Shown: positions 89-24,878, counted from the first letter of the stretch. The stretch: DNA of 33,254 nt from Clostridia bacterium (GCA_022795675.1 JAAWHY010000001.1:1-33254); one strand, 5' to 3'. Notes: generated from the sequence alone by a model not told the origin. Numbers and translations are program-made.

Positions 89-1171
89 TTATATCTCTGC
101 TTGATATTGTTTTTCCTGCTCATATTGTATTTGTTCTTTTTCATTTCTTCTATAAACATTTAGTTCATATTTTTTATTTGTTATACCATCTTCTGCTATT
201 ACATTTATTTGGATATAATTATTTCCAACTTTCATTTCATTATTTCCTAGTATTGATACTTTGGCTTTTTCGCTTTGGGGTATTGCTAATATTTCTATCT
301 TTGTTGTTTCATTTGGGATCTCTATTTTATAATCTGTTATATTATAGTTAAATTCTGGATTGAGGCTCCCTTCTCTTACTGCTAGAATCTCTAAATTGGC
401 ATTTGCAATTTCTATATTTGTAGTTTTTGTTACATATATTTTATAGCTATCTTTTTTTGTCTTATCTTCTGAAATAACATCTATTTCAATTAAATTTTTT
501 CCTATTTTTAAGTTTTGATTTCCTGTTATATTAACAGTAGCATTTGGATTTTCAGGAATAGCAGTTACCTCTAAATTATCTATTTTATCATCTGTTACAA
601 AATAATATTCTTTTTTATCTTTTTGAAATTCAGGACTAATTCCTTCATGATTTAGTCTTAATACACTTAAACTCGTTGAGTCACTTGCTCCGACTTGTTT
701 CATTGTTTCTGATGTTTCTGTCATACTTTTTTCATTTTCCTTGAGTTCTAATTCTATATTACTATTTTCTATTTCTATTTTTTTACCTTGTTCATTGTAG
801 AATTCTCCTAAGACTGTAATATTAGCATTTTCTTCTTTTAAAACTTTAAATTGAAATTGTTCTGTTTTTATATCCTGCTTATTTTTTCCTGTATTACTTA
901 CCCATGTATAAATTATTCTATTATTAGAATAATTTGAGTTATCTGGCCCTTGTAAATATTCCAATATTGACGAATCCCAAAATATCTCTAATGTAAAAGC
1001 TGCAACTTGTGCATTTTTTATTTCTACTTTTATGTTTAATTCTTCATCTTGTTGTATTTCCTTTTTGTCAGTGACTATATTCATTTGTGTTTCTGCATAA
1101 CTTTTTGTATTTATTAGTGAACACAAAATTATTATTATAAATAATATTACTATATTTTTTATCTTTTTCAT
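89..1171 (-). CDS. secreted surface protein: N-terminal cohesin-like domain plus two cadherin-like beta-sandwich repeats
   Basis: 360-aa ORF with signal peptide MKKIKNIVILFIIIILCSLINTKSYA. AAFTLEIFWDSSILEYLQG resembles a cohesin-type module. Two ~85-aa internal repeats (LSVLRLNHEGISPEF...LEVTAIPENPNATVNITG...IGKNLIEIDVISED and LEILAVREGSLNPEF...IEILAIPQSEKAKVSILG...VGNNYIQINVIAED) fit the cadherin-like beta-sandwich pattern. The stop codon sits at the composition break (~88), so the native 3' end is uncertain. Confidence 0.6.
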   Translation of the reverse strand: MKKIKNIVILFIIIILCSLINTKSYAETQMNIVTDKKEIQQDEELNIKVEIKNAQVAAFTLEIFWDSSILEYLQGPDNSNYSNNRIIYTWVSNTGKNKQDIKTEQFQFKVLKEENANITVLGEFYNEQGKKIEIENSNIELELKENEKSMTETSETMKQVGASDSTSLSVLRLNHEGISPEFQKDKKEYYFVTDDKIDNLEVTAIPENPNATVNITGNQNLKIGKNLIEIDVISEDKTKKDSYKIYVTKTTNIEIANANLEILAVREGSLNPEFNYNITDYKIEIPNETTKIEILAIPQSEKAKVSILGNNEMKVGNNYIQINVIAEDGITNKKYELNVYRRNEKEQIQYEQEKQYQAEI

Positions 1172-1345
1172 AATTTACCTCCGCTTTTTAATGTGTTATA
1201 GTTGGCAAACTTAAATGTTCTACCCACTACATCTTCTTAAAATTAATCAATATACCTTTATTGTTCTATTGTTTTCAAAGTTAATATATGTCTTTGTATT
1301 ATTAATAAATCTAATGAAGAAGGATTTTGTCCGTTTTTGTTTATA

Positions 1346-2305
1346 TTACCGTGCTTTTAGAAAAGTTTCATTTAATCTTTGTATTTCTAATATATGTCTT
1401 TGTAAAACTAATAAGTCCAAACTATTTATTTTTCCATCTCCATTTACATCTCCATAGATTATAATATAATATTCCATTTTTATATTATTATTTTCATCTA
1501 CTAACCTAATTTTACTTCCTGTTCCTACCTTTTGCCCTTCTTTTAATTCGTTTCCTTTATAGTCATATATTTCAATATTGTATATTGTTTCTATTTTCTC
1601 TTTTACATTTTCTACATTTAATTTCTCAATGTCCCACCCTGTTATCTCATTTTGCATTACCTTCAAGCTTTCATCAAACTTAATTTCTCCTTCACTTAGT
1701 TCTTTTACTACTATAACATCTATTTCACTTTCAAAACCGCCATCTTCTGTTGTAACAGTAATTTTTGTATTTCCTTCTTTTATAGCTGTTATATTTCCAT
1801 TAGTACTTATTTTTGCAATTTGCTCATCTTCTGATGTATAAATTACATTTTTATTGTCTGCATCTGTTGGAGTTATAATAGGTTTTACAGTAAATGAATC
1901 ACCTATTTGCATAACTATATTCTTATTAGTTAACTCTATACCTGTTACAGGTGTAAATACTTTTATTTGGATTTCTCCTTTTACATTATTTTCTTTTGCT
2001 TTTACAGTTATTGTTGTTGTTCCAGATTTTATAGCCATTATATTTCCCATACTATCTACTGTTGCCACTTTTGGATTACTAGAAATATATTCTACTTCAT
2101 GCTCTTTTGCTTCATCTGGCAATATTTCTACTTTTAATTTTATAGTTTCTCCTTTTTCTAATTGAGTTTTATCTAATGTAACATTTATAGCTTCTATTTG
2201 TCTATTTGGTACTTCTTTTAAATAGTTCTGGAATACATATCCTATAATTCCATTAGGAAGTATTACTCTATCCCATAATTCTCCGTGATTGTCTCCCTTT
2301 TGCAA
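1346..2305 (-). CDS. C-terminal fragment of a frameshifted cell-wall hydrolase gene: rest of an SH3b domain, two Big_2 domains, one dockerin repeat
   Basis: ORF opens with TTG inside the upstream ORF. DNHGELWDRVILPNGIIGYVFQNYL completes the SH3b domain begun in ORF 2268..3506. Two Big_2-type repeats are present (VTLDKTQLEKGETIKLKVEILPDEA...SSNPKVATVD..G.I.AIKSGTTTITV and ELTNKNIVMQIGDSFTVKPIITPTDA...TSEDEQIAKIS..GNITAIKEGNTKITV). The C-terminal GDVNGDGKINSLDLLVLQRHIL is one dockerin EF-hand-like repeat, and the ORF stops where a second repeat is expected. Confidence 0.65.
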   Translation of the reverse strand: MQKGDNHGELWDRVILPNGIIGYVFQNYLKEVPNRQIEAINVTLDKTQLEKGETIKLKVEILPDEAKEHEVEYISSNPKVATVDSMGNIMAIKSGTTTITVKAKENNVKGEIQIKVFTPVTGIELTNKNIVMQIGDSFTVKPIITPTDADNKNVIYTSEDEQIAKISTNGNITAIKEGNTKITVTTEDGGFESEIDVIVVKELSEGEIKFDESLKVMQNEITGWDIEKLNVENVKEKIETIYNIEIYDYKGNELKEGQKVGTGSKIRLVDENNNIKMEYYIIIYGDVNGDGKINSLDLLVLQRHILEIQRLNETFLKAR

Positions 2306-3506
2306 TTCTTGTCATTACTACATTTCTATCAACTTTTGTTAATAACTCATATGAGGTCGATGGTCCTGAACGTACATTTAAATTATCTGTTACATCTGCA
2401 TAAACTTTCGTATTGTCTGATATATAATCACTTTCTAAGATGTTTGGATTTTGTACCCACATATTTGGCATATTATTATAAACAGGTATTATAAAAGTCA
2501 TACTATTTCCTAATATTCCAGTTTTACTATAACCATTATAAATAGACAAAGATTCACTATATGGTGCTAATACATTTGTCATATACTGATGCCAAAATAA
2601 TTCACCTCCTGCAACATTTGTAACATGAAACTTTTGTAAATATAAGGTGTCTTGTCCTACATTAATATAACTAGAACCAATGAATTTTCCTCCACCAGTA
2701 ATTGCTCTTTCTTTTGTATTCCATGGGATTAAATATTTGTTTTTAGTGGCCTCACTCGCTCCATTTCCATCTCTTGCATATTTTAGCCCATTTTTTATAG
2801 CTCCCATTGGCTCAGATGAACTTGTTGCTCCTATATTATAAAAATTATATAAACCTTCAAATCCTTCTACCCTTCCACTAATAGAACTATGTGATAAAAA
2901 AGGACCTACCTCTTGTTTTATTCTTGATGCTAAATGGTAGGTGCTTACTGTAGAAGTTCTTCCTGCTGACAATATAAGGTCTGAGTATTTACTATTCATT
3001 GTTATGATATTTCCTGCACTTGTAACATAGTCTACTATTCTATTGTGAAATTCAGTTCCATATAATATTTTTTCAATTCCATCTAGGTTATTTGTTTTTT
3101 CATCATAAGAAAGTGCCTCAAATTGAAAAATTCTTACTTCATTTAAAAAATTTCTAGGATCCATTGTATATTCTAAAGACCTCCTAGAGGCATCCACCCA
3201 ACCACTATCAACTTCCACATTATATTGTCCTGGAGTAGTATTTTTCCATCTATCTGAATATGATTTTGGCACTAGATTTTTTCCAAATACATTTTCATTA
3301 TTTATTACATAATTCCAATCTAGGTTTGTATATAGAGACACAAACCTCCAATTTGGATGATTTTTTTGTAATTCCTGTAAGTATGGTTTATAGCTATCTG
3401 GAAAACTTTCTATTCCTTCTTTTTTATCTGCACAATATGATATATTTATGAAGACATTCAAAAATAAAATTGCTATTATTATAAAAAATATTTTTATATA
3501 TTTCAT
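2268..3506 (-). CDS. N-terminal fragment of the same hydrolase gene: signal peptide, GH73-like N-acetylglucosaminidase domain, start of SH3b
   Basis: 412-aa ORF with a signal peptide. SFPDSYKPYLQELQKNHPNWRF, YNFYNIGA and GQDTLYLQKFHV are typical of clostridial glucosaminidase/autolysin domains. The C-terminal NVRSGPSTSYELLTKVDRNVVMTRIAKG is the first half of an SH3b domain, followed by 8 out-of-frame residues and a stop. Confidence 0.7.
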   Translation of the reverse strand: MKYIKIFFIIIAILFLNVFINISYCADKKEGIESFPDSYKPYLQELQKNHPNWRFVSLYTNLDWNYVINNENVFGKNLVPKSYSDRWKNTTPGQYNVEVDSGWVDASRRSLEYTMDPRNFLNEVRIFQFEALSYDEKTNNLDGIEKILYGTEFHNRIVDYVTSAGNIITMNSKYSDLILSAGRTSTVSTYHLASRIKQEVGPFLSHSSISGRVEGFEGLYNFYNIGATSSSEPMGAIKNGLKYARDGNGASEATKNKYLIPWNTKERAITGGGKFIGSSYINVGQDTLYLQKFHVTNVAGGELFWHQYMTNVLAPYSESLSIYNGYSKTGILGNSMTFIIPVYNNMPNMWVQNPNILESDYISDNTKVYADVTDNLNVRSGPSTSYELLTKVDRNVVMTRIAKGRQSRRIMG

Positions 3507-3556
3507 ATTACACCCTTATTCTTTTTTTAATTTTTTATATATGTTTTGTTATTAAT

Positions 3557-4192
3557 CTAATTATTTGCAATAGCTTGTACTATAAGTCTACTCTTAGAAT
3601 AATTAACACATGTAATTAATGTAACTATTTTGTTACCATTAGTTTCTTGTCCTATCGGTGATATATTTTGAGGTTTTACTCTATATATATTGTATATAGT
3701 ATAGCCAATCTTTCCATTATTATTATCTGTTAAATACAGTTCATCTCCTTTTTCTAAGTCAATTAAATGATTAAACATATTCTCTCTTTTAGTATTATGA
3801 CCAGCTATACAGAAATTTCCTATTTCATTAGGTTCTGGACCATAAAATTTTGAACTACATACCTTCATACCTTCAATTGTATAATTCTTTAAAACATTGG
3901 TTTCTAATTGTATTTTTGGTATTTCTAACTTAGCTATTACATCATAATTTAAATATTTCTGAGGAACAAGTTCTTGTTCTATTTTTACTGGAGCAACAGA
4001 GTTTATTTTAACTTCCTTGGATACATTTTCTATTATAATTTGTGGATTTTCTTCTTCTACTAACTCTATTTGTTTTTCTTTATAAAAACCAAATCCTGAA
4101 TATATTATAATAGAAAAAATAATTCCTAAAATAGCAATTCTTAATTTGGATTTTATCTTATCTTTTATTATTTTTTCCATTATTAATTTCAT
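3557..4192 (-). CDS. sortase (cysteine transpeptidase)
   Basis: 211-aa ORF with an N-terminal membrane anchor (LRIAILGIIFSIIIYSGFGF), catalytic His context CIAGHN, the TLITC active-site motif and a downstream Arg (SRLIVQA). It lies next to an LPKTG substrate gene. Confidence 0.85.
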   Translation of the reverse strand: MKLIMEKIIKDKIKSKLRIAILGIIFSIIIYSGFGFYKEKQIELVEEENPQIIIENVSKEVKINSVAPVKIEQELVPQKYLNYDVIAKLEIPKIQLETNVLKNYTIEGMKVCSSKFYGPEPNEIGNFCIAGHNTKRENMFNHLIDLEKGDELYLTDNNNGKIGYTIYNIYRVKPQNISPIGQETNGNKIVTLITCVNYSKSRLIVQAIANN

Positions 4193-4223
4193 TCCTTTCT
4201 AAGGTATATTCATTTTTTAACCT

Positions 4224-4257
4224 TTATTTTAAAAGAGCAGGCACAAGGCCTGCCTCT
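4224..4257 (-). terminator. rho-independent terminator after the LPKTG protein gene
   Basis: The minus strand reads GGCAGGC-CUUGU-GCCUGC followed by UCUUUUAAAAU. It is a GC-rich stem in otherwise AT-rich DNA, just after the stop at 4262. Confidence 0.7.
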
Positions 4258-4261
4258 ATTT

Positions 4262-5326
4262 CTACTTACTTTTCTTATTTCTTAATGACATATATGATAT
4301 TGTTAGTATTGCTATTACTGATAATATACTTAAATATATTGTTCTACCTGTTTTAGGTAATACATTTGGTGTTTCTGTTGGTGTATTATTTTCTGTAGTT
4401 GATGGTACTTGTTCACTTGGCTGTTGTCCATTGCTTGATGGCGGTACTTGATTATTATTAACTGGTGGAACTACACCTGTTGATTGTTCTTGTACTGCAA
4501 TTGTAAAACTTTTACTTTCAATTACAGCATCTGCATTATCTCTATCTATTAGTTTTAAGGTAATAGTATAGTCTCCTTTACCACTAAATACTCCTCTTGT
4601 AGTAATTTTTTTAATTACATCTTTTCCACCAATTGGATCACCGTCAGCACTTCCCCATCCACTTTGAATAATATCATGTTCTAAATTTTGGTTATCTGTT
4701 GAAAGTAATCTTACATTTTCACCTGTTGGAGTTATTGCTTCTGCTAATATTCTTGTGTGTGCATAGTTTTTACCCATACTACTTGAAATAACTATTTCCA
4801 TTTCTTTTTCTTCGTTTGGTATTATATCTCCTGTATAATTTAGGGCAATATTGTAATCAACATATACTGGTTCTACTATTAAGTTTTTAATAATAGGAAC
4901 AGTAATATCATCAATTGGGTTTGCATCTGGAGTTCCTAATCCTGTTAATGTAATACTTAAATCAGTAGGGTTTGTAGTTATCATTCCTTCTTTTGCCTTG
5001 AAAGTAATACTCATTGTGCTACGTGGTGCTGGATCTACACCTGCATTATAATGGTATACTACAATAACTTTAGAACCTGTATTATTTGCGGTACCTCCTT
5101 CTGCTGATATATATTCTAATAAGTTTTCATCATAATCTACATTTACTGTATATGCACCTAGATCTTGTCCGAAATCAATATTTAATGTTACTGTCTCTCC
5201 TGGATGCACTGTTGTTTTATCTGTTGTTATGTTTAAATTGTTTAGAGTTGCTGCATAAACATTTGCTGTGAAAGTTAGTAAAAATAAAATAAAGAAAATC
5301 GTAATAATATTTGTTAATTTTTTCAT
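4262..5326 (-). CDS. LPXTG (LPKTG) cell-wall-anchored surface protein with an N-terminal cohesin-like domain
   Basis: 354-aa ORF with signal peptide MKKLTNIITIFFILFLLTFTANVYA. GAYTVNVDYDENLLEYISAEGG is cohesin-like. A P/T/N/Q-rich stalk follows, then LPKTG (nt 4346..4360), a hydrophobic segment and an RNKKSK tail. Confidence 0.85.
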   Translation of the reverse strand: MKKLTNIITIFFILFLLTFTANVYAATLNNLNITTDKTTVHPGETVTLNIDFGQDLGAYTVNVDYDENLLEYISAEGGTANNTGSKVIVVYHYNAGVDPAPRSTMSITFKAKEGMITTNPTDLSITLTGLGTPDANPIDDITVPIIKNLIVEPVYVDYNIALNYTGDIIPNEEKEMEIVISSSMGKNYAHTRILAEAITPTGENVRLLSTDNQNLEHDIIQSGWGSADGDPIGGKDVIKKITTRGVFSGKGDYTITLKLIDRDNADAVIESKSFTIAVQEQSTGVVPPVNNNQVPPSSNGQQPSEQVPSTTENNTPTETPNVLPKTGRTIYLSILSVIAILTISYMSLRNKKSK

Positions 5327-5617: not shown

Positions 5618-6136
5618 TTACTGTCCATCTACCATTACTACTCCTGAATGTTTAGATGTTATAGTATTTCCACTATTTCCTGTTATTTTATAGAAAAAAT
5701 TTTTTAAAACTTCTGCTACAGTTTGATTATTGTTTACTACTCCTGCTGAAAACATATCTCCTTGTTTCAAATATACTGTTCCATCATCAAGTTCCTCTTC
5801 AATTTGTGTAGTATAAATTGAATAATATGTATTTTCACCTATTCTTTGCTCATTGGCACTTGCTGTTTTTTTACTTGGGTTTTCATCTAAACGTCTTAAT
5901 TCTAAGTCTACTGAATATGTATTTCCTGTGGAGGTAATTGTTTGTATAAAATCATCGTAACTGTCTTGTGTTATTTTTCCTGTTTGTCTTACTCCATCTA
6001 CAAACTCTACTGTAGCTGTTTGGACTGCTATTTGTGATATATCATCTGTTCTATCTGCTAATGTTATCATTGGAAATACAAATAACAGTATTGCAGCTAA
6101 TATGATTGTTATAATAGTAATTAAAGAATCTCCCAT
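5618..6136 (-). CDS. pilus-operon protein with an N-terminal hydrophobic helix (possible minor pilin or assembly factor), unknown family
   Basis: 172-aa ORF with N-terminus MGDSLITIITIILAAILLFVFPMITLA and an AGGAGGG RBS. It is the last gene of the operon. I recognise no family motif. Confidence 0.45.
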   Translation of the reverse strand: MGDSLITIITIILAAILLFVFPMITLADRTDDISQIAVQTATVEFVDGVRQTGKITQDSYDDFIQTITSTGNTYSVDLELRRLDENPSKKTASANEQRIGENTYYSIYTTQIEEELDDGTVYLKQGDMFSAGVVNNNQTVAEVLKNFFYKITGNSGNTITSKHSGVVMVDGQ

Positions 6137-6176
6137 TTAAATTCCCTCCTTTATATAATGTTAAAACAAAAGTGCA

Positions 6177-7040
6177 TTAGTTATTTTTTATATAAATTAT
6201 TTCTCTTTTTTTAGTATAACGGATTGTTCCGAATACTAATAGACCTGTGTCTTGGTCATTTTCATCCTTGATGTATTCATTTCTGTCTAACTGTACAATA
6301 GATTCTGTAAAAGTATCATCTTTATACTTTTCTAATAATCCATTGCTATAAAATGATTTATGTTTTCCAGCTATATAGTTTAGATCAGTTTCATTAACAC
6401 CTGGGTTTTTTAAACTGAAATTTGTAATTCCTCCATACATATCACAATTTACCCTCTGTGTTACATTATTATTTTGATATGTATTTGCACTTAACCATGA
6501 TGTATATACAAGTTCCTTTTTAGGATCTGTTTCTCCTGTTGAATATATTTTTTTTACTAAAATATCTAAAGAGTTTTCATCTAAATTAGTCATAGATGTT
6601 ATATTTGGTTCTAAACTATTTACTTTTGATATTATATTATCATTTAAATATTTACATATTTCAGCTTTTATATCATTACTCTTCTTTTTTTCAATTTGTG
6701 ATGCACTATGATACCTATCATTCCAAAAACAACTAGACACTTGTGATTCAGTGTCTAAGTCAAATCTAGCTACAATTTCACCAGAATCTATTATTGTTAC
6801 TCCATATCCTTCCTGAGCATATCTGTATATTGTTGGTATCATATCTTGGAACTTTACTTTTCTATTAGCTCCATAACTTGTATCTGCATTATAATTTACA
6901 TATGTAGTTTTATCTATCGCTTCAAATATCTTATCTGTAGTATCCTTTGCAACAGAGGTCATTCGGAAAAATACACTTAAAGCTAATGAAAATACAAATA
7001 CAGCAAAAAACATTTTTAAGGCTTCAGCCGCATTCTCCAT
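6177..7040 (-). CDS. large pilin-like protein with the MENAAEAL N-terminus (candidate minor or tip pilin)
   Basis: 287-aa ORF. It starts MENAAEALKMFFAVFVFSLALSVFF, sharing the M-E-N-A-x-x-A-L start and a single hydrophobic helix with three upstream paralogues. It has a GGAGG RBS. Confidence 0.55.
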   Translation of the reverse strand: MENAAEALKMFFAVFVFSLALSVFFRMTSVAKDTTDKIFEAIDKTTYVNYNADTSYGANRKVKFQDMIPTIYRYAQEGYGVTIIDSGEIVARFDLDTESQVSSCFWNDRYHSASQIEKKKSNDIKAEICKYLNDNIISKVNSLEPNITSMTNLDENSLDILVKKIYSTGETDPKKELVYTSWLSANTYQNNNVTQRVNCDMYGGITNFSLKNPGVNETDLNYIAGKHKSFYSNGLLEKYKDDTFTESIVQLDRNEYIKDENDQDTGLLVFGTIRYTKKREIIYIKNN

Positions 7041-7060
7041 TTAATTTCCTCCTTATATAA

Positions 7061-7489
7061 TTATTTTCTTGTTATTGATATTTGTTCAATATATCCATCA
7101 GCACTCTTTTTTTCCATTACTACATCATATCTTGCTGAACTAACTATTTGTGCACCAAATTTTGTAAGTTCTGTTGAATCTGACATTTCCTTTTTCTCTA
7201 TTGATAGTTTACTATCAGTCATTATAATTGTTATTATACGTCCACTAGAGTTTGTAGCATTATTTGTAGATACAGTATTTAATAATGTTTGTACTGCAGA
7301 TCCTTTTTGAGTACCTTGATAAGTAGTAAATCTATTATTAAATGCAGTAATTTCTTGTTCTGTTGTCATGTCTTGTGCTTCGGTTACAAGTCCTTGTGAT
7401 GATTGTACTATTACCATACCTATACTAATTAAAACTATAACAATTAAAATAGCTCCTGCTATTAATAGTGCTTTTGACGCATTCTCCAT
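7061..7489 (-). CDS. pilin-like protein (candidate major subunit)
   Basis: 142-aa ORF starting MENASKALLIAGAILIVIVLISIGMVIV. The ITAFNNRFTTYQG...GSAVQTLLNTVSTNN motif is shared with paralogues. It has its own near-consensus promoter (7580..7608) and a GGAGG RBS. Confidence 0.6.
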   Translation of the reverse strand: MENASKALLIAGAILIVIVLISIGMVIVQSSQGLVTEAQDMTTEQEITAFNNRFTTYQGTQKGSAVQTLLNTVSTNNATNSSGRIITIIMTDSKLSIEKKEMSDSTELTKFGAQIVSSARYDVVMEKKSADGYIEQISITRK

Positions 7490-7579
7490 ATTTATTCCTC
7501 CTTTGATATATCATATTATTTTTATATTTAGGCTTTATTATGCATAAATCGACATTAAAACCTTTTTTCACCTATTATT

Positions 7580-7608
7580 ATTATCGCACAAATTATGTCT
7601 AAAGTCAA
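7580..7608 (-). promoter_or_regulatory. sigma-A type promoter internal to the operon, upstream of the 142-aa pilin-like gene
   Basis: The minus strand reads TTGACT, a 17-nt spacer, then TGC-GATAAT (TG-extended -10). It lies about 90 nt upstream of the ATG at 7489. Confidence 0.55.
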
Positions 7609-7623
7609 TACAAATGTCAGATA

Positions 7624-8067
7624 TTAACTTATGAGTTCAAATACTAGCTTATTCACTCTTCCATATGAATTGTAATTTATATCAACACATTTAAAGTCCA
7701 ATACATTAAAATTTTTTACAAATCTTTCTATTCCTAATGAGTTTATTGTTTCCATCGAATATGTTATAATTTGTTCATCATCTTCCGAACTTAACATTCT
7801 AATCTCAATTTTCAAACAATATTTATCATCATCTATGTAATTTCCATTTCCATCTTTTTCAATATTATATTTTTCATTATTATTAATTGCATAATTTATT
7901 AAAGAACCAATATTTGTACCATATATAGTTTTATCTTTGTATTGTTCATATTCTAAATTAAATCTGTTTATTTCATTTCTTTCTGCCCTAAATTGTGATA
8001 TTACTAGAGTTAGTGATGTAATAACAACAATTACTAAAATTATTAATATAATAATTATTTTTTTCAT
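7624..8067 (-). CDS. pilin-family paralogue lacking the MENA leader (signal-anchor type N-terminus)
   Basis: 147-aa ORF starting MKKIIIILIILVIVVITSLTLVIS. It shares FNLEYEQY...YGTNIGSLINYAINNN and the C-terminal FKCVDINYNSYGRVNKLVFELI with the 227- and 165-aa paralogues. Confidence 0.5.
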   Translation of the reverse strand: MKKIIIILIILVIVVITSLTLVISQFRAERNEINRFNLEYEQYKDKTIYGTNIGSLINYAINNNEKYNIEKDGNGNYIDDDKYCLKIEIRMLSSEDDEQIITYSMETINSLGIERFVKNFNVLDFKCVDINYNSYGRVNKLVFELIS

Positions 8068-8119
8068 TATAAATATGTTCCTTTCTAGTAATTAAATATT
8101 ATCCTTATGCATACATATT

Positions 8120-8148
8120 GGGCGGAGGCAAGCCCCGCCCCTACAATT
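8120..8148 (-). repeat. short REP-like GC-rich hairpin element, copy B
   Basis: Plus strand: gggcgg-a-ggc-aa-gcc-ccgccc-ctacaatt. The minus strand starts AATTGTAGGGGCGGGG. It lies between two pilin-like genes. Confidence 0.75.
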
Positions 8149-8168
8149 GTTTCTATTTATATACAAAA

Positions 8169-16310: not shown

Positions 16311-16650
16311 CAGTTTGCGACTTTTGTAATATAAACGTCATATCAACGTAATATTTTTGTAATATTCATATAATAATCCAATGTGATATACGGAAAGTCC
16401 TAGTTTTTATATTTCTATCAAGCACAAATGGATTTTAAAAATTAGTATATTATTATCAACAAGTTCGAAATTAATGACACTTACTTTTATATTTAATTTC
16501 ACATATAGTTTACAATGTTGTATACTTAATTTTTTTGAAAATATATTCCTTTATTTATTTTAAAATTATTAAATTTACTAATACATAGATTTGTTTTCCA
16601 TTTTTACCAAATTTTTCTTGTTTATTTTTTTTTATATTGCACAATATATA

Positions 16651-16685
16651 CTATGAAATGATTTGGTGACCAAATTGTTTCATAG
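16651..16685 (+). promoter_or_regulatory. 35-nt palindrome / 5'-leader hairpin just upstream of the SASP gene RBS
   Basis: ctatgaaatgatttggtgaccaaattgtttcatag forms a 16-bp stem (two G-U wobbles in RNA) around a 3-nt loop and ends 17 nt before GGAGG. Confidence 0.5.
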
Positions 16686-16716
16686 CGAAACGTTTTATTC
16701 TAGGAGGTGAATGATA

Positions 16717-16920
16717 ATGGCAAACAATTCTAACAAAAAATTAGTTCCAGAAGCTATGGACGCTTTAGATAAATTCAAATATGAAGTAGCTAGTGAAGTT
16801 GGTGTAACTTTAAAAGATGGTTATAATGGTAACCTATCTTCAAGAGACGCTGGTAGAATCGGTGGTAACATGGTTAAAAAGTTAATACAACAAGCTGAAA
16901 ACAACATGGCTAACAAATAA
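16717..16920 (+). CDS. ssp: alpha/beta-type small acid-soluble spore protein
   Basis: MANNSNKKLVPEAMDALDKFKYEVASEVGV...LSSRDAGRIGGNMVKKLIQQAE carries both conserved SASP blocks. The ATG at 16717 sits 9 nt after GGAGG (16703..16707), whereas the track start at 16711 is too close. Confidence 0.9.
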   Translation: MANNSNKKLVPEAMDALDKFKYEVASEVGVTLKDGYNGNLSSRDAGRIGGNMVKKLIQQAENNMANK

Positions 16921-16983
16921 TTAAATTACTAGCTTATAATTTTTGCAGGAATATTTCTTTCCCACTTTTATGTTTATACATAA

Positions 16984-17016
16984 GGGCAGGAACTAAATGT
17001 TCCTGCCCTTTTATTA
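16984..17016 (+). terminator. rho-independent terminator after ssp (possibly bidirectional, also facing the purM end)
   Basis: gggcaggaac-taaat-gttcctgccc followed by ttttatta. Confidence 0.8.
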
Positions 17017-17065
17017 TTCTAATAACTTTAATTATGCACATTTTTTTACGTCTCCAATGTGCATT

Positions 17066-19450: not shown

Positions 19451-19492
19451 GTGGCTTTGCCACGCGGACGACCAATGGTCGCCCCTACATTA
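19451..19492 (-). repeat. short REP-like GC-rich hairpin element, copy C
   Basis: gtggctttgccac-g-cggacgacca-a-tggtcgcccctacattaa has the same architecture as copy A, with compensatory changes in the inner stem. Confidence 0.8.
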
Positions 19493-19537: not shown

Positions 19538-19653
19538 GGTGCACCCAGTAAAATTTGCTTCGCAAATTTTCCAAGCTTTATTCATGAAAGCACAAAATAA
19601 AAAAATACTTTTCTTATTTTGTGCTTTCTCTCATCTCCACGTATCCCTACGTT
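19538..19653 (-). repeat. long modular REP-like element, copy F
   Basis: Contains the identical 28-nt module (19546..19573), a perfect 14-bp hairpin aaagcacaaaataa/ttattttgtgcttt (19587..19627), and then ctctcatctccacgtatccctacg abutting the DUF1292 stop codon. Confidence 0.8.
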
Positions 19654-19960
19654 ATTCTTCATCTATAAAATCGAATTCTTCCTTAAATTTTTCTTTAAAC
19701 ATGTTAAATACTGTATTAAGAATTTCTTCATCTTCAACACTTACATAAGATTCTTCATCTTCTGAATCAGTATCTTCAACTCGTAAAATAACTACTTCAT
19801 CAGCATCTTCTTCCTCGCTTGCTGGTAACAACACAACATATTCTTCTCCGTCTAACTCTATCAAATCTAAGAACTCGAACTTAACTTCCTCTCCATTTTC
19901 ATCATTTAAAACTATAACATTTTCTAGTTCTTCTTCCATTCCATTTTGTTCGTTATCCAT
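19652..19960 (-). CDS. DUF1292 family protein
   Basis: 102-aa acidic ORF. VLNDENGEEVKFEFLDLIELDGEEYVVLLP...VVILRVED is the DUF1292 signature, and the conserved neighbour ruvX is present. Confidence 0.8.
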   Translation of the reverse strand: MDNEQNGMEEELENVIVLNDENGEEVKFEFLDLIELDGEEYVVLLPASEEEDADEVVILRVEDTDSEDEESYVSVEDEEILNTVFNMFKEKFKEEFDFIDEE

Positions 19961-19991
19961 TATTAATTTCCTTCCTTTCCACAGTTTAAAA

Positions 19992-20417
19992 TTATAAATT
20001 TTTATTTATATATGTTTCTAATATATATCCGGCAGATATTGTATCTACTATATTTCTTTTATTTTTCCTATTTACATTAAGAATATTCATAGTTTTATGT
20101 GCTGCTACTGTTGTTAATCTTTCATCCATAGTATCAATCTTAATTTTATTAAATTTGCATTTTAATTTATGTAGAAATTTATTTGTTATTTCTACCCTAT
20201 CAGAACTTGTCCCATCCATATTAAAAGGCATACCTAGAACTATTGTATCAATTTCATATTCATTCAAAATTTCTTCTAATCTTTTTAATACTTTTTTATC
20301 ATTTCCGTCATGATGTATTGTTTCTAATCCTTGAGATGTTATTCCTAAAGGATCTGAAATAGCAATTCCAACTCTTGCATCTCCATAATCTATACCTAAT
20401 ATTCTCATATTATTCAA
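19992..20417 (-). CDS. ruvX: Holliday junction resolvase-like / pre-16S rRNA nuclease (YqgF)
   Basis: MRILGIDYGDARVGIAISDPLG and DERLTT blocks are present. The true start may be the ATG at 20408. Confidence 0.88.
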   Translation of the reverse strand: MNNMRILGIDYGDARVGIAISDPLGITSQGLETIHHDGNDKKVLKRLEEILNEYEIDTIVLGMPFNMDGTSSDRVEITNKFLHKLKCKFNKIKIDTMDERLTTVAAHKTMNILNVNRKNKRNIVDTISAGYILETYINKNL

Positions 20418-20664
20418 TTATTCCTATATAATTTTCTACCATTCTTTCTAATAGTTCATCACGTTCAATTTGTCTTATTATATTTCTTGCATTTTTGTGA
20501 CTTGTAATATATGTTGGATCACCTGATAAAATATATCCTACTATTTGATTTACAGGATTATATCCTTTTTCAACTAGAGCATCATAAACTTGTCTTAAAG
20601 TTTCCTTAGTCTTTAAGTTTTTGTCTTTTTCTAATTTAAAATTCATAGTTTTATCCATTTCCAT
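20410..20664 (-). CDS. ireB: IreB / UPF0297 family regulatory phosphoprotein
   Basis: 84-aa ORF. VYDALVEKGYNPVNQIVGYILSGDPTYITSHKNARNIIRQIERDELLE is the UPF0297 signature. Confidence 0.85.
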   Translation of the reverse strand: MEMDKTMNFKLEKDKNLKTKETLRQVYDALVEKGYNPVNQIVGYILSGDPTYITSHKNARNIIRQIERDELLERMVENYIGIIE

Positions 20665-20683: not shown

Positions 20684-21805
20684 TTATATATTATTTACAT
20701 CGTATTCTGTTATTGGTGCATTATCTAAGTATTCCTCTTGCTTCTTTAAAATTTTCTCTAAAGCTGTACCTTTATAATATGTGGTTAATACAATATTTAA
20801 CTTAATCTTAGCTATTCTTTTATTGTCTTTTTTATTATTCTTTTCATTGTCATCAACCATTTCTATTTTTAAATTTTCTACAGCATTTTTCATATCTATA
20901 ATAAATCTTGTAACTCCATCTACTTCTGCTCCTGAAAATGCAATTACAAATTTTGGACCCATATATCTTACAAATATGTATTCATTTGATAAATTCTCTT
21001 TTATATAATCACACATATCTATTATTACCTGGTTTCCAGTTTCTCTGTTAAATTGTTTATTAATTTGTTCTAAATTTGCAATTCCAATCATACATATTGT
21101 TGAGGTAGTATATCTATCAATTATTTTTCTTCCCTCGTTAAATAAATATTCGCTTGTCTTTAAGGCAGAATAGTAGTCGTCTCTTGTTAAACTTTCAACA
21201 ATATTTTGATAATTAACAATTCTAAATACAGATAATATATTATCTTTTACTACCTCAAGTATTGTTGTATCTATATTATCAAAAGCATGTGGTAGACCAC
21301 TTTCTATTATCCAATATCCAATATAAACATTTTCTATATATAGTGGAAAAAATATTGCTGCCTTTGCTCTACCAAATTCGCTTTTTTGATATGGTAATCT
21401 TTCATCTTCATTATCTACAGTAATATATTTAGGTGTAGCAGTTGTTATACTGTCTTTAAACACATCTTCATTGTGTAGACTTCTAAGGTTGTCCCAATGC
21501 TTTTCTTCAACATTTGAAGCTTTTATTACATATTCTGTTCCATTAAATTCTACAATAGTAGAATATTTTATGTCATATTCTTCTATTAAAATTTCATTTA
21601 TTTTCTTTATTTTCTGATCTACAGTTAATGTATCTCCAGCCGTTGCCATAAAATCCTGCAATACATTTAATCCATTTATCTTCTGATTTATATTTTTGTA
21701 ATTGTTTATTTCTTTATGTATTTTTATATTAAATAAGATTAACATGATTATTATAACAACTAAAACTATTATTACTCCTATTATCCACATATCAGTCCAT
21801 GTCAC
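20684..21805 (-). CDS. membrane-anchored GAF-like plus degenerate GGDEF domain protein
   Basis: 373-aa ORF with an N-terminal TM helix. The C-terminal domain aligns by eye to the GGDEF fold (ICMIGIANLEQINKQFNRETGNQVI...IFVRYMGPKFVIAF), with MGPKF (nt 20948..20962) in place of GGDEF. Confidence 0.6.
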   Translation of the reverse strand: MTWTDMWIIGVIIVLVVIIIMLILFNIKIHKEINNYKNINQKINGLNVLQDFMATAGDTLTVDQKIKKINEILIEEYDIKYSTIVEFNGTEYVIKASNVEEKHWDNLRSLHNEDVFKDSITTATPKYITVDNEDERLPYQKSEFGRAKAAIFFPLYIENVYIGYWIIESGLPHAFDNIDTTILEVVKDNILSVFRIVNYQNIVESLTRDDYYSALKTSEYLFNEGRKIIDRYTTSTICMIGIANLEQINKQFNRETGNQVIIDMCDYIKENLSNEYIFVRYMGPKFVIAFSGAEVDGVTRFIIDMKNAVENLKIEMVDDNEKNNKKDNKRIAKIKLNIVLTTYYKGTALEKILKKQEEYLDNAPITEYDVNNI

Positions 21806-21812
21806 TCCTTTT

Positions 21813-24320
21813 CTATTTATATTGTCTTTTCATCTCATCTAAAGTACTACTCATATTATTTGAAAATCTTGATCTACTTTGTTCATAATTCATATAACCT
21901 GCATTACCTACATTTTCTCTATTTCTTCTCTTAAGTGTACCGCCTGATATAACTGGATATACTTGATCTGCTAATCTATTTAAGCAATTTAGGAAAACTT
22001 TATTATATCCTCTAGTTGATATTTCACAATTTGCAATTCCTGATAGATAATTAGAATATGCCTCCATATCAAATGGAATTACTATTTTGTTTATTGTTTT
22101 CATATCAAACAACCTGTCTTGTATAGACATTTCTGGATCATTATATGTTGACATTCCCCCAACTATCATCTCTTCATTGAGTCCTCTTACTTTTTGAGCT
22201 TTGTTTATAACAGCTCTCAATTTTTCTGGTTGTAAAATATTATTTAGCTTTAACTTTCTTAAGAATTCTGTTAATGGTTGTATTGTTAATACATCCATGC
22301 TTTGAACCATATATATTTCCTGTGCTACTCTGAAATATTCTTTATTTGTTGAATAATCACAATCTAATAATACTAAAGAATAATTTTTAACTAAAGTTGA
22401 TAGCATATTTTCTATACTATAGTCTGAATTTTTAATGTTAGGTGATGAAGTATATACAGTTAAATTTCTATTTACCTCTATTCCTGCAGGGTTTCCTTGT
22501 TTTAAGTTTTCCATAGATGAATACGCAATTTCTCTTAATTCTTCTCTATTTTCTGTATATATATAATATGAATTCTTATTTTTTGTTAAGTCTACTACAG
22601 CTGTTTTTATTCCTCTATTTGATAGTATATCAGCAATATTATTTACTAAAAAAGAGACTCCATTTTTTGATGTACCTACAAAAGATACTACCTTTTTATC
22701 TTGAGTTAATAGATATGAAATATCTACTATTTTCCCATCATCTTCAATTTCTTCTAAATCCTTACTTGGTGATACACCATAATTATTATTTCTGTATGTA
22801 CTGTCATTTACTGGAGAAGTGTTTATTCTATTATCATGTATATCTTGTAGTATATTATTTTCAAAACTTGGTGTACCATAGCTTTGTGGTTCTTCAATTC
22901 TATTCATTTGTATAGCTTCTTTTTCCCTAAAGCTTGACACTCTTGGTTGTCTTCTTTCCCCAAAATTCGATAATTTTACAGGTTCCTCTTTAAAACTTGG
23001 TAAAGCTGGAGATTCTTCTTCAAAACTTGGTAAAATTGGAGATTCCTCCTCAAAGCTAGGTAAAACTGGTGGTGTTTCTTCAAATCCTGGTAATTGTGTA
23101 CTTGTATCTTCTTCAAATCCTGGTAATTGCTGTATTTGTGTCCCAATTTCAGTATTTGGTATAACCTGCTCCTGCATCTCTGTATTTGGAATAGGATTTT
23201 TTCTAGGTCTTCCTCTTCCTCTTTTTGGAGTTTCTACTTTCTGTTCTGGTTCGACTATAATTTTTTTAGGTCTTCCTCTTCCTCTTTTTACAGGTTGATC
23301 TGCTGGAGGAGTTATTCCTTCAACTTCAAGTTCTATTGAAGCTTTTATTGGAGCTGTCGATTTTATAGAAGCTATTGTTTCTATTGGTTCTATTGGAGCT
23401 ACTCCTTCTATACTCTCTATTTCTTCAAGTATTGCATTTGTATCATTTCCAACAAACTCTGTTCTTATTGGTTCTGGAGTTGATTCTGCAATTTTTCTTA
23501 CCTCATTATTTTTTCTAATATTTGATGGTATTATAACTGGTCCCATTGGTTGACTTGAGTGGCTATCTACAATCTTAGAAACATTTATATTGCTTTTCTT
23601 TATGGCTTCTTTTCTTGGGGTTGTAGCTGTACTATATGTCATTATAGATTGATATTTAGGTGACTCTGCTTCAAGCACTGCTTTTACTTCCATTGGTAAA
23701 AATTTTATTATTATCTTTAGTTGTTCATCACTATATTGCTCTGCTATACTATTAAAACTTTCAACATATTTGCTTTCATTTTTTCCTAGCTTTCTGTAAT
23801 GTGTTAAAATATTTTGAATTTCTACTTCACTTACATTTTTATCATCTTCACGTTCATATTCTCCTTGCTCAATTCTGTAATATATTTTAGCTTCTTTTTT
23901 TGTTCTTGGTTTATTTAACAAATTGCATACATTTTCTATGGTTCTATCGTTTCCAATTAAGGCATCATATACCCCTATTGAAAACAATTTTACTAATAAA
24001 TTATCAGATTTTTCTCTTCTCTCTGAGCAAATTACAACTATTGGTATATCTCTTCCTTCTCTATCAATTGCTTCATCACTTATACCATCTAATTTTTCAA
24101 ATATAAATTTATCTATTGTGTCATAATTATTATTAGTAAATGGCTCTAAATCTTCACTTATTACTATTCTATCATATGTTTGATTTCTTTGTAATTCTTT
24201 AATGATAGCATTAAAATAATAAACATTTTTTGAAGATATTATTTCTTTATATTCTGTTTGATATACTTTAACTATTTTTTCTGCTATATCTTCTGTACTA
24301 ACTGCAAATAAAACTTTCAT
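21813..24320 (-). CDS. REC-like domain, disordered linker with two AT-hooks and PxFEE repeats, then a degenerate MinD/ParA-like (CpaE/TadZ-like) domain
   Basis: The track ORF starts at 24380, but the ATG at 24320 (MKVLFAVSTED...) follows a GGAAGGAG RBS and lies 6 nt after the upstream stop. KRGRGRPKK is at nt 23262..23288 and KRGRGRPRK at 23199..23225. LPGFEE/LPSFEEE repeats span 22983..23126. The C-terminal VVSFVGTSKNGVSFLVNNIADILS...TAVVDL...LVLLDCD has a MinD-like fold pattern without GKT. Confidence 0.6.
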   Translation of the reverse strand: MKVLFAVSTEDIAEKIVKVYQTEYKEIISSKNVYYFNAIIKELQRNQTYDRIVISEDLEPFTNNNYDTIDKFIFEKLDGISDEAIDREGRDIPIVVICSERREKSDNLLVKLFSIGVYDALIGNDRTIENVCNLLNKPRTKKEAKIYYRIEQGEYEREDDKNVSEVEIQNILTHYRKLGKNESKYVESFNSIAEQYSDEQLKIIIKFLPMEVKAVLEAESPKYQSIMTYSTATTPRKEAIKKSNINVSKIVDSHSSQPMGPVIIPSNIRKNNEVRKIAESTPEPIRTEFVGNDTNAILEEIESIEGVAPIEPIETIASIKSTAPIKASIELEVEGITPPADQPVKRGRGRPKKIIVEPEQKVETPKRGRGRPRKNPIPNTEMQEQVIPNTEIGTQIQQLPGFEEDTSTQLPGFEETPPVLPSFEEESPILPSFEEESPALPSFKEEPVKLSNFGERRQPRVSSFREKEAIQMNRIEEPQSYGTPSFENNILQDIHDNRINTSPVNDSTYRNNNYGVSPSKDLEEIEDDGKIVDISYLLTQDKKVVSFVGTSKNGVSFLVNNIADILSNRGIKTAVVDLTKNKNSYYIYTENREELREIAYSSMENLKQGNPAGIEVNRNLTVYTSSPNIKNSDYSIENMLSTLVKNYSLVLLDCDYSTNKEYFRVAQEIYMVQSMDVLTIQPLTEFLRKLKLNNILQPEKLRAVINKAQKVRGLNEEMIVGGMSTYNDPEMSIQDRLFDMKTINKIVIPFDMEAYSNYLSGIANCEISTRGYNKVFLNCLNRLADQVYPVISGGTLKRRNRENVGNAGYMNYEQSRSRFSNNMSSTLDEMKRQYK

Positions 24321-24325
24321 TTGTT

Positions 24326-24736
24326 TTAACTCCTTCCGAATTTTACTACAACAACAAATATAAATGGCAATACCTGACATACTATAAGTATCGTTACAAA
24401 AGCTATCATAGCAAAAAATCCTTTGTATCTTGTACCCATATTTCTAATTCCTAATGCATATTGAAATATAGCTGAAATTGATATTCCTAAAAAACATAAT
24501 GGTATACTTAAAAATCTAATTTTATTTAATATGTAAGCCGTAAATCCGTAAGTTTCATTGCCATATGCTTCTATATAATCATCCAATTCTTTCAATGATT
24601 TTTCTTTTATCTCAATTAATTTTCCTGCTGTATCTGATTCTAATAAAGCTTCTCCACTTGATGCATAAACTTTATATGAAATAACCATAGATAAAATACA
24701 TATCACTACTAACAAAGCAATTACCATCTTTTTCAT
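24326..24736 (-). CDS. small integral membrane protein, unknown function
   Basis: 136-aa ORF with an N-terminal signal/anchor and about three further hydrophobic helices. It appears translationally coupled to the next gene. Confidence 0.5.
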   Translation of the reverse strand: MKKMVIALLVVICILSMVISYKVYASSGEALLESDTAGKLIEIKEKSLKELDDYIEAYGNETYGFTAYILNKIRFLSIPLCFLGISISAIFQYALGIRNMGTRYKGFFAMIAFVTILIVCQVLPFIFVVVVKFGRS

Positions 24737-24770: not shown

Positions 24771-24865
24771 GTGAAAAATTTGCTTAACAAATTTTATGGA
24801 AATCTATATAAAAAATATACTTTCTCATATAGATAAAATTGATATAAATATCATACACTACAATT
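24771..24865 (-). repeat. long modular REP-like element, decayed AT-rich copy H
   Basis: gtgaaaaatttgcttaacaaattttatgg (compare the 28-nt module), the hairpin atctatat/atatagat (24802..24834), the ctttctcat block and the tail cactacaatt all appear in the same order as in copies E/F/G. Confidence 0.6.
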
Positions 24866-24878
24866 AAAAAAATATCAA
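24850..24878 (-). promoter_or_regulatory. sigma-A type promoter for the 136-aa/835-aa gene pair
   Basis: The minus strand reads TTGATA, a 17-nt spacer, then TATGAT. The spacer and -10 overlap the tail of repeat H, so most of H would lie in the 5' UTR. Confidence 0.45.

Follow-up and report, generated by a model that had tools for sequence, protein, structure and literature searches.

In a 33,254-nucleotide stretch of DNA from a Clostridia bacterium (GCA_022795675.1 JAAWHY010000001.1:1-33254), referred to here in its full length as the window, we identified a gene, named ATH here, whose 835-amino-acid product joins two AT-hooks and an acidic stretch to a ParA/MinD-fold domain that has lost its catalytic residues. 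Our leading interpretation, to which we give somewhat less than an even chance, is that ATH is an ATP-independent nucleoid-binding scaffold or tether, and that it belongs to a family whose core is a membrane-associated scaffold and to which DNA tethering has been added in this clade. The gene was called as an open reading frame on the minus strand, at 21813-24320. The frame is open upstream of the ATG at 24320 as far as 24380, and we placed the start at 24320 because the homologues all begin with MKVLF (MKVLFAV) and because a Shine-Dalgarno sequence, GGAAGGAG, lies 8 nucleotides ahead of this codon. An earlier note on this DNA had claimed a gene with the same boundaries, and it stands as a real open reading frame whose start is backed by both lines of evidence.

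The family to which ATH belongs is large. A word-indexed search returned more than 6650 homologues, and the best 120 of these are full-length and share 44-98% identity; no homologue bears another name than ‘hypothetical protein’ or has a precomputed Pfam domain. An exhaustive search of representatives of 50%-identity clusters found 563 at E <= 1e-3 and 217 at E <= 1e-30, and the species-representative genomes of GTDB hold at least 583 ATH-family loci, and every one of the best 80 belongs to uncultured Clostridia of the gut or to bins related to them, such as Clostridium sp. CAG:273 and Candidatus Merdicola. When ATH was scanned against Pfam, only sub-threshold matches to AT_hook, MipZ and CbiA were obtained, and comparison with NCBIfam, PADLOC and PHROGs gave nothing significant. 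With no match to defence or phage families, a phage or defence-system origin of ATH was rejected. We assign the window to the uncultured gut order TANB77, since its Tad-like operon matches the published signature pilus cluster of that order, a cluster that the CAG-492 species are reported not to have.

The fold of the C-terminal domain carries much of the argument. With 25 aligned sequences as input, the AlphaFold2 model of residues 528-835 came to a pLDDT (predicted local distance difference test) of 81 and a pTM (predicted template-modelling score) of 0.80. Its top Foldseek matches in the PDB were 3ea0, 5tvk, MinD (4v02 and 3q9l), FlhG (4rz3), FleN and Soj, all proteins of the ParA/MinD class, with a probability of 1.0, E-values of 2e-8 to 1e-6 (2e-8 to 7e-7 for 3ea0, 5tvk, 4v02, 4rz3 and 3q9l) and TM-scores of 0.5-0.68. 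By model and structural search together, the domain has the ParA/MinD alpha/beta fold, and the proposal that the C-terminus of ATH is MinD-like, with GTSKNGVS replacing the P-loop, was borne out. The family profile also matches the MinD-like BY-kinase CapB, where GTSK-NGtS falls opposite the CapB Walker A sequence AGKS. Local alignment to E. coli MinD with hhalign puts T at the signature lysine K11, V or T at the P-loop lysine K16 and S at T17; in switch I, VDLT lies opposite IDFD, so that D38 is kept and the catalytic D40 becomes Thr. This MinD register comes from a short, low-probability hhalign segment, and it is the same register as that of the hidden Markov model alignment to CapB. The hhalign comparisons of the domain with single MinD, o233 (the 233-residue TadZ-like protein of the window's pilus cluster) and o280 (its CpaE-like protein of 280 residues) gave only weak local matches, which we used for register and not as proof of homology.

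The deviant Walker A signature xKGGxGK[ST] is absent from ATH, both lysines being replaced, and of the switch I aspartates that correspond to MinD D38 and D40 the second is Thr in the low-probability register. The sequence GxxxxGK[ST] occurs in none of 75 non-identical species-level orthologues. Across these same orthologues the loop G[TS]xKxG[TVI][ST] and the Walker-B-like DCD are nearly invariant, and the DxT motif is found in all 75. Because the variant loop, DxT and DCD are almost invariant among species, we predict that the domain is a ParA/MinD-fold pseudo-ATPase held under purifying selection, and not the product of a decaying gene. ATH thus shares its fold with MinD, ParA (Soj) and FlhG and keeps the Walker B-type DCD and the switch I Asp, whereas the equivalents of MinD K11, K16 and D40 have all been replaced. 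It also differs from these proteins in its genomic company: no gene for MinE, MinC, ParB or a similar partner adjoins ATH in 84 related loci. Unlike MinD and ParA, ATH would contact DNA through AT-hooks and not through an ATP-dependent dimer surface.

Those hooks, KRGRGRPKK and KRGRGRPRK, lie in the linker ahead of the ParA/MinD-fold domain, where the earlier note had placed them. When each hook was compared by itself with Pfam AT_hook, hook 1 obtained 20.9 bits, above the cut-off of 17.4, and hook 2 obtained 15.2 bits; the RGRP core of hook 2 lies 21 residues past the core of hook 1. In sequence, we take hook 2 to be identical to the first of the hooks in human HMGA1. Species-representative genomes supplied 77 full-length orthologues; exactly two RGRP cores were counted in 75 of them, three in another and a single one in the last. 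The spacing has its mode at 21-22 residues, the flanking basic residues are kept, and conservation of the pair reaches down to about 44% identity (range 44-98%). Likewise, all of the top 120 database homologues have hooks, and 117 have exactly two. ATH therefore carries at least two RGRP cores with basic flanks, as expected of an HMGA-like or AT-hook module. Comparison of the hook region with PDB sequences gave no match, for a query that is short and compositionally biased. Absence of the hooks from orthologues would have marked them as a lineage-specific accident; retention of exactly two in 75 of 77 species-level orthologues argues otherwise, and DNA tethering stays the best reading of the linker. 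Judged by their motif, the hooks of ATH would bind the minor groove of AT-rich chromosomal DNA.

The linker as a whole (residues 233-530) is Pro/Glu-rich and barely alignable among orthologues except in short conserved islands. One such island precedes the hooks and has the form P[VI][VI][IV]P[STG] in 61 of 75 orthologues. Past the hooks the linker becomes contiguously and highly acidic, with a median of 25% D+E and 3% K+R and, in ATH, a pI of 4.2. This part holds acidic-hydrophobic peptides of the form ΦLP(G/S)Φ(D/E), and the five tandem acidic repeats that had been claimed for the linker were found within it at residues 399-446. Their coding DNA consists of 30-bp and 33-bp tandem arrays (22983-23139) that are 77-93% identical, and the number of LP(G/S)F(E/K)E copies differs between relatives. 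In 68 of 75 orthologues the more general motif [LIMVF]P[GS][LIMFV][EDNSY] can be found; it occurs 139 times, where shuffled linkers would lead one to expect 1.6 (about 85-fold). A second motif, LFxLG, is shared by 36 of the 75 and occurs 49 times, where 0.04 would be expected (more than 1000-fold). Conserved as they are inside an otherwise unalignable linker, the hooks and acidic motifs exceed what chance would produce. Two familiar identities for LPGF were considered and set aside. A beta-clamp-binding motif (QLPGF, with [VI][ND]LFxLG also considered) was rejected by eye, as position -4 is not a conserved Gln and position -1 is Gly; a sortase LPxTG signal was rejected for LPGFE, which lacks the T-G, has no signal peptide and stands in a cytoplasmic context.

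What marks out HMGA proteins, and likewise the C-terminal part of myxobacterial CarD, is the presence of AT-hooks beside a contiguous acidic region; as of 2010, no HMGA-like protein of prokaryotes was said to be known apart from CarD and its orthologue (PMC2919716). By this sequence definition, the two hooks of ATH and the acidic stretch that follows them make up an HMGA-like module. With Myxococcus xanthus CarD and HMGA1 it shares several RGRP hooks flanked by K/R, together with a region that is contiguous and highly acidic. It differs in having two hooks, where CarD has four and HMGA1 three, and in the placing of its acidic region after the hooks, with defined ΦLP(G/S)Φ(D/E) motifs. Unlike that of CarD, moreover, the module of ATH is an internal linker and not the tail of an RNA polymerase-binding protein, and it occurs in Bacillota instead of myxobacteria. 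The literature that we searched did not contain the combination of AT-hooks with a ParA-like domain.

Relatives at a greater distance put the hooks into perspective. At 32-43% identity, they retain the N-terminal and helical domains as well as the degenerate ParA-like one, the membrane protein is again encoded upstream, and the genes adjoin ireB where contig sequence suffices. None of these relatives has hooks or acidic motifs. Their linkers (P0204, P0232, P0254, P0250, P0179, P0185 and P0195 were compared, from loci L085, L086 and L094-L096) are made up of ER/K-rich repeats, PKVEP repeats or N/Q-rich tracts, and the long ER/K-rich repeats could possibly form coiled coils or single alpha-helices. 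In many of these proteins the C-terminus is a basic ...KKGLF(G/K/R) tail, not FSxxMNxTLxxMKxxY; this tail presumably resembles the membrane-targeting helix of MinD, a likeness that we treat as a lead only. The existence of such relatives suggests that the family core is probably a membrane-associated scaffold and that DNA tethering is a clade-specific addition; their sequences point to a membrane-associated core with an exchangeable adaptor. The earlier note had the hooks tether the protein to the nucleoid of an extremely AT-rich genome. That AT-richness drives the presence of hooks was not supported: hookless relatives occur in equally AT-rich genomes, some of their loci being at 22-24% GC, so AT-richness alone does not predict hooks.

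The genomic setting of ATH is constant. The stop codon of a small membrane gene lies 5 nucleotides ahead of the ATH start, and the ATH Shine-Dalgarno sequence falls inside the last codons of that gene. Its product has a signal-peptide-like N-terminus followed by a two-helix transmembrane hairpin, and the motifs SIPxCFxG and QxLPxIF are conserved in all clades. Seven nucleotides downstream of ATH follows a GGDEF-like gene, which encodes a protein with one N-terminal transmembrane helix. In this protein the signature reads RYMGPKF in place of GGDEF, and there is no RxxD inhibitory site upstream of it; on both grounds, cyclase activity is improbable. A likelier start for this gene than the listed GTG at 21805 is the ATG at 21790, with AAGGAG ahead of it. 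Downstream of ATH, the GGDEF-like gene, ireB and ruvX come next in all of 84 related loci, and the DUF1292 gene comes after them in 83. The small membrane gene stands upstream of ATH in 79 of the 84, and the exceptions have little or no sequence upstream of ATH. The neighbours described in the earlier note, namely the degenerate GGDEF gene, the small membrane protein and a Tad-like operon 5.5 kb away, were thus all confirmed. An identity as a T4SS pilin was rejected for the small membrane protein: one of eight orthologues reached 25.8 bits against the Pfam T4SS_pilin cut-off of 26.6, and the other seven scored nothing. The VirB2/TrbC-like topology of the small membrane protein (with a relative at L086 7577-7996) is a lead only.

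At the other end of ATH lies its best-conserved part, residues 1-150, in which hydrophobic and amphipathic segments alternate along the alignment. The earlier note had read a CheY-like receiver into this alternation. The pattern itself is present and compatible with a (beta-alpha)5 flavodoxin-like fold, for which the AlphaFold2 model is of low confidence, but sequence tests lent the receiver identity no support. Neither of two profiles of the N-terminal domain, one of them built from 36 sequences, found a match in the PDB, receiver or other, and none of the 36 members matched Pfam Response_reg, even at E up to 10. Alignment of the domain by hhalign with a profile of 11 genuine receivers (E. 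coli CheY, CheB, UvrY, RcsB, AtoC, OmpR, PhoB, NarL and NtrC, and two Spo0A) gave a probability of 0.5%. When receiver residues were mapped by eye onto the 36-sequence alignment, without a significant alignment to guide the mapping, no conserved Asp was seen at the end of the presumed beta3, the place of the phospho-acceptor, where the near-invariant E56 stands; nor was there a conserved acidic pair after beta1 or a conserved Lys after beta5. E59 is likewise near-invariant. AlphaFold2 modelling of the N-terminal 270 residues from a 15-sequence alignment gave a pLDDT of 50 overall and of 33-47 for residues 1-150, and Foldseek with this low-confidence model returned noise only. Membership of the REC family thus fails every sequence test, leaving the receiver-like call unproven. 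The one confident part of this model is residues 160-228, whose helices have a pLDDT of about 80; a profile of the helical domain (residues 160-232) matched nothing significant in the PDB or Pfam.

Taken together, these features suggest how ATH may work. We envisage an unnamed Clostridial scaffold family whose members open with a family-specific N-terminal domain and a small helical one, continue through a long linker that is disordered and highly variable, and then carry a ParA/MinD fold that would no longer hydrolyse ATP. Their gene is always a neighbour of that for the small two-helix membrane protein and stands at the head of the ireB-ruvX operon. In the TANB77 clade the linker would have acquired an HMGA-like module, with two hooks about 21 residues apart and an acidic stretch of ΦLP(G/S)Φ(D/E) motifs. 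The hooks would bind the minor groove of AT-rich chromosomal DNA constitutively, replacing the ATP-dependent DNA binding of a true ParA, while at the membrane the dead ParA-like domain and the N-terminal domain would serve as fixed modules for docking or dimerisation, probably in concert with the membrane protein that is co-translated with ATH. The acidic motifs might recruit a partner in several copies, or they might damp the hooks, as the acidic tail of HMGA does. The net effect would be a hard-wired link from the nucleoid to a membrane complex, and not an oscillating positioning ATPase.

Several observations weigh against this interpretation. The best-conserved part of the protein, its N-terminal domain, is without an assignable fold or function, and DNA binding by the hooks is deduced from their motif. 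The residue register with MinD rests on a short hhalign segment of low probability, though the alignment to CapB agrees with it, and the conserved non-canonical loop might still bind nucleotide. The membrane partner exposes a cytoplasmic loop of only about 11 residues, which makes direct docking uncertain. Finally, the clades that lack hooks make it plain that the family did not have DNA binding as its ancestral core function.

We considered other roles for ATH, the most concrete of which concerns the pilus. Among known systems, the nearest to ATH in its way of working would be TadZ/CpaE, a docking protein that is ParA-like and non-hydrolysing, once joined to a DNA module of the HMGA/CarD type. 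In ATH as in TadZ/CpaE, an N-terminal domain, alpha/beta-looking in the case of ATH, precedes a ParA/MinD-fold domain, and in both the Walker A lysine has been lost and the final S/T retained; ATH, too, is probably a docking protein that does not oscillate. On the strength of this layout the earlier note had assigned ATH a CpaE/TadZ role for the Tad machine. ATH would then be the localisation factor of the TANB77 pilus, its receiver-like and ParA-like domains placing the machine and its hooks anchoring it to the nucleoid. The Tad-like operon (window 5618-16239, minus strand) begins 5.5 kb from ATH and is also near it in 5-6 of the closest relatives, and o233, from this cluster, is weakly similar to the C-terminal domain of ATH (hhalign E 1e-3, probability 20%). 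The open reading frames of the operon encode a CpaB-like protein of 320 residues, proteins of 233 and 280 residues, a T2SSE ATPase of 635 residues and a fused TadB/C-like protein of 694 residues, with several pilin-like proteins downstream, four of which start MENA(S/A/A)(K/E)AL. By size these correspond to the published TANB77 pilus cluster, which comprises a CpaB-like protein, a TadZ-like protein of 231 residues, a CpaE-like protein of 280, TadA of 640 and TadB/C of 693, and then pilin-like proteins (PMC11680825). However, that cluster carries its TadZ-like and CpaE-like genes directly upstream of TadA, so the pilus machine already has its own two. The Tad-like T2SSE ATPase lies within 10 kb of ATH in just 5 of 84 loci, all closest relatives; in about 78 of the 84 the cluster is not found within 10 kb, whereas the ATH operon is invariant, so that a tad/cpa locus next to TadA/CpaF is not the usual context of ATH. 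Hookless relatives sit in the same ireB operon without tad genes nearby. TadZ has a Walker-A-like consensus, K/RGGXGXS/T, that lacks the Walker A lysine (bioRxiv 10.64898/2026.07.08.737194); ATH shares G-x-S/T without Lys, and has T-S-K for K/R-G-G. No TadZ entry is named among the 50 Foldseek matches listed, and the N-terminal domain, with no detectable similarity to receivers, leaves the receiver fold unproven. ATH further departs from TadZ/CpaE in the disordered HMGA-like linker of about 300 residues between its domains, and in its pairing with a small membrane protein in the ireB operon. We consider the pilus role highly unlikely.

Two alternatives take the hooks as the defining feature. 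ATH could be an architectural transcription factor of the CarD/HMGA kind, whose hooks bend promoters while the acidic motifs touch RNA polymerase or a co-regulator and the other domains sense a signal. Hooks with an acidic region are indeed the layout of HMGA and of the CarD C-terminus, the acidic-hydrophobic motifs resemble activation-type peptides, and the degenerate GGDEF-like neighbour is possibly a signalling partner. Yet ATH has no CarD_TRCF or other RNA polymerase-binding domain, the tightness with which it is coupled to a membrane protein speaks, like the membrane-type tails of relatives without hooks, for the envelope rather than for promoters, and the hooks were added late to an older family that does not bind DNA; we therefore hold this role to be unlikely. 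The same low standing goes to the idea that ATH is a chromosome anchor or segregation factor at division or sporulation, in the manner of RacA, Soj or Noc, which would pin AT-rich DNA to the pole or septum through its ParA-like domain. It draws on genes for small acid-soluble spore proteins (SASP) and Spo0A in related loci, as in a spore-former, on the union of a ParA/MinD fold with a DNA-binding module, on the PBP5-type carboxypeptidase that adjoins the membrane gene/ATH pair in distant clades, and on the core, single-copy housekeeping location of ATH. But no parS, ParB-like partner, DivIVA or MinC linkage occurs in the loci examined, and AT-hooks offer little sequence specificity for the origin region. 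The likeness to the Bacillus tethers Noc and RacA would be one of function, each combining a DNA-binding module with a membrane- or pole-directed one; there is no kinship of sequence or fold with ATH, since Noc is ParB-like and carries an amphipathic helix, and RacA unites a helix-turn-helix with a coiled coil. Each of the two recognises specific sites, whereas AT-hooks bind AT tracts almost without specificity. An anchor of this kind is in any case a specialised form of the scaffold interpretation and not a clear alternative to it. Lastly, hooks and repeats could be low-complexity sequence without a function, left as a by-product by a disordered spacer that evolves fast. From clade to clade the linker is hypervariable, in its length as in its composition, and repeat number shifts among close relatives through recent DNA duplications (77-93% identity). 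Against this stand hook number, spacing and basic flanks, kept in 75 of 77 species at 44-98% identity, and the excess of the acidic motif (85-fold) and of LFxLG (more than 1000-fold) over shuffled expectation; to this reading we give almost no credence.

Table 1. Features of ATH and its operon, in window coordinates.
Feature	Residues	Coordinates	Strand	Evidence
ATH, AT-hook/pseudo-ParA protein gene		21813..24320	-	Open reading frame, homologue starts, Shine-Dalgarno GGAAGGAG
N-terminal conserved domain, no family match	1-150	23871..24320	-	Strong conservation; PDB, Pfam and REC-profile searches negative
Small conserved helical domain	160-232	23625..23843	-	AlphaFold2 helices, conserved in all clades
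PVIIPS peptide before the hooks	261-266	23523..23540	-	Conserved island in variable linker
AT-hook 1, KRGRGRPKK	345-353	23262..23288	-	Pfam AT_hook 20.9 bits, orthologue conservation
AT-hook 2, KRGRGRPRK	366-374	23199..23225	-	Pfam AT_hook 15.2 bits, orthologue conservation
Five acidic LP(G/S)F(E/K)E repeats	399-446	22983..23126	-	Post-hook linker about 25% acidic
ParA/MinD-fold domain, predicted ATPase-inactive	531-792	21945..22730	-	AlphaFold2, Foldseek, CapB profile match
Degenerate Walker A, GTSKNGVS	549-556	22653..22676	-	Alignment to CapB AGKS and E. coli MinD GKGGVGKT
C-terminal tail FSNNMSSTLDEMKRQYK, predicted short helix	819-835	21816..21866	-	Conservation, AlphaFold2 (helix 297-306 of domain model)
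Small membrane protein, 136 amino acids, translationally coupled upstream partner		24326..24736	-	Stop-start gap, synteny
Membrane-anchored degenerate GGDEF-like protein, directly downstream of ATH		20684..21805	-	Pfam GGDEF E 1e-7
ireB, ruvX and DUF1292 gene, co-directional string		19652..20664	-	Pfam families in homologous loci, synteny
Promoter-like TTGATA-17-TATGAT, in 189-bp gap upstream of small membrane gene		24850..24878	-	Best minus-strand match, 10/12
Terminator-like hairpin and T-run after DUF1292 gene		19451..19463	-	Sequence scan

The sites that could bound the operon are listed in Table 1. Promoter-like matches in the region do not exceed chance in total, and the TTGATA site is only consistent with a promoter; terminator-like sites number three, against 1.0 expected. 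The two kinds of site are consistent with one operon, though they are statistically not compelling. All genes of the window lie on the minus strand, at 25-33% GC, and in the order of transcription they begin with nusA, infB, rbfA, a DHH-family gene, truB and a HAD-family gene, continue with the small membrane gene, ATH, the GGDEF-like gene, ireB, ruvX and the DUF1292 gene, and end with two genes with radical-SAM/TRAM and AIRS domains, the Tad-like pilus cluster and surface-protein genes.

Some further observations concern the wider window and its relatives. The open reading frame of IF-2 (28363-31425, minus strand) is unusually long, at 1020 residues, with a TTG start and about 440 residues ahead of its IF2_N domain. 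In the pilus cluster, the proteins of 233 and 280 residues (14557-15258 and 13714-14556, both minus strand) lack a P-loop and have a ParA-like look (GFIGAYDKAN and NNSKRGHIGQTAS), which hints that degenerate ParA-like proteins may have diversified in this clade. Downstream of the cluster, at 89-5326 on the minus strand, lie genes for a cohesin-domain protein, a sortase, a protein with dockerin and Big_2 domains and a cadherin-like protein, which by their domains form a putative cell-surface or cellulosome-like set beside the pilus genes. In a near-identical locus, L001, the AIRS-domain gene and the pilus cluster have a SASP gene (10442-10645) between them, which is encoded on the opposite strand; the matching region of the window is at about 16240-17065. 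Together with Spo0A in related loci, this gene content indicates a probable spore-forming lifestyle.

Having no name and no model in Pfam, NCBIfam, PHROGs or PADLOC, the ATH family is yet present in at least about 580 species-representative genomes of uncultured gut Clostridia. In TANB77, an order tied to the response to cancer immunotherapy and almost wholly undescribed in its cell biology, it takes the form of an AT-hook/pseudo-ParA combination that is unusual and strongly conserved, and to which we ascribe a function by inference. ATH shows a way in which a ParA/MinD ATPase could turn into a pseudo-enzyme scaffold with an exchangeable disordered adaptor, and it extends modules of AT-hooks with an acidic tail, hitherto those of myxobacterial CarD, to Bacillota. 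A bolder claim would be that ATH is the first ParA/MinD-family protein to exchange ATP-switched, transient nucleoid binding for permanent binding by AT-hooks of eukaryotic type, a dead scaffold, co-translated with a small membrane protein, that couples an AT-rich chromosome to the envelope as an order-wide core feature of TANB77 and brings with it the first HMGA-like module in Bacillota; this stronger version we regard as doubtful. The two hooks, two short peptide motifs and dead P-loop of ATH offer handles on the organisation of chromosome and envelope in an AT-rich, small-genome anaerobe. If the bolder claim is true, ATH would represent a new, ATP-independent mode of chromosome-to-membrane organisation.

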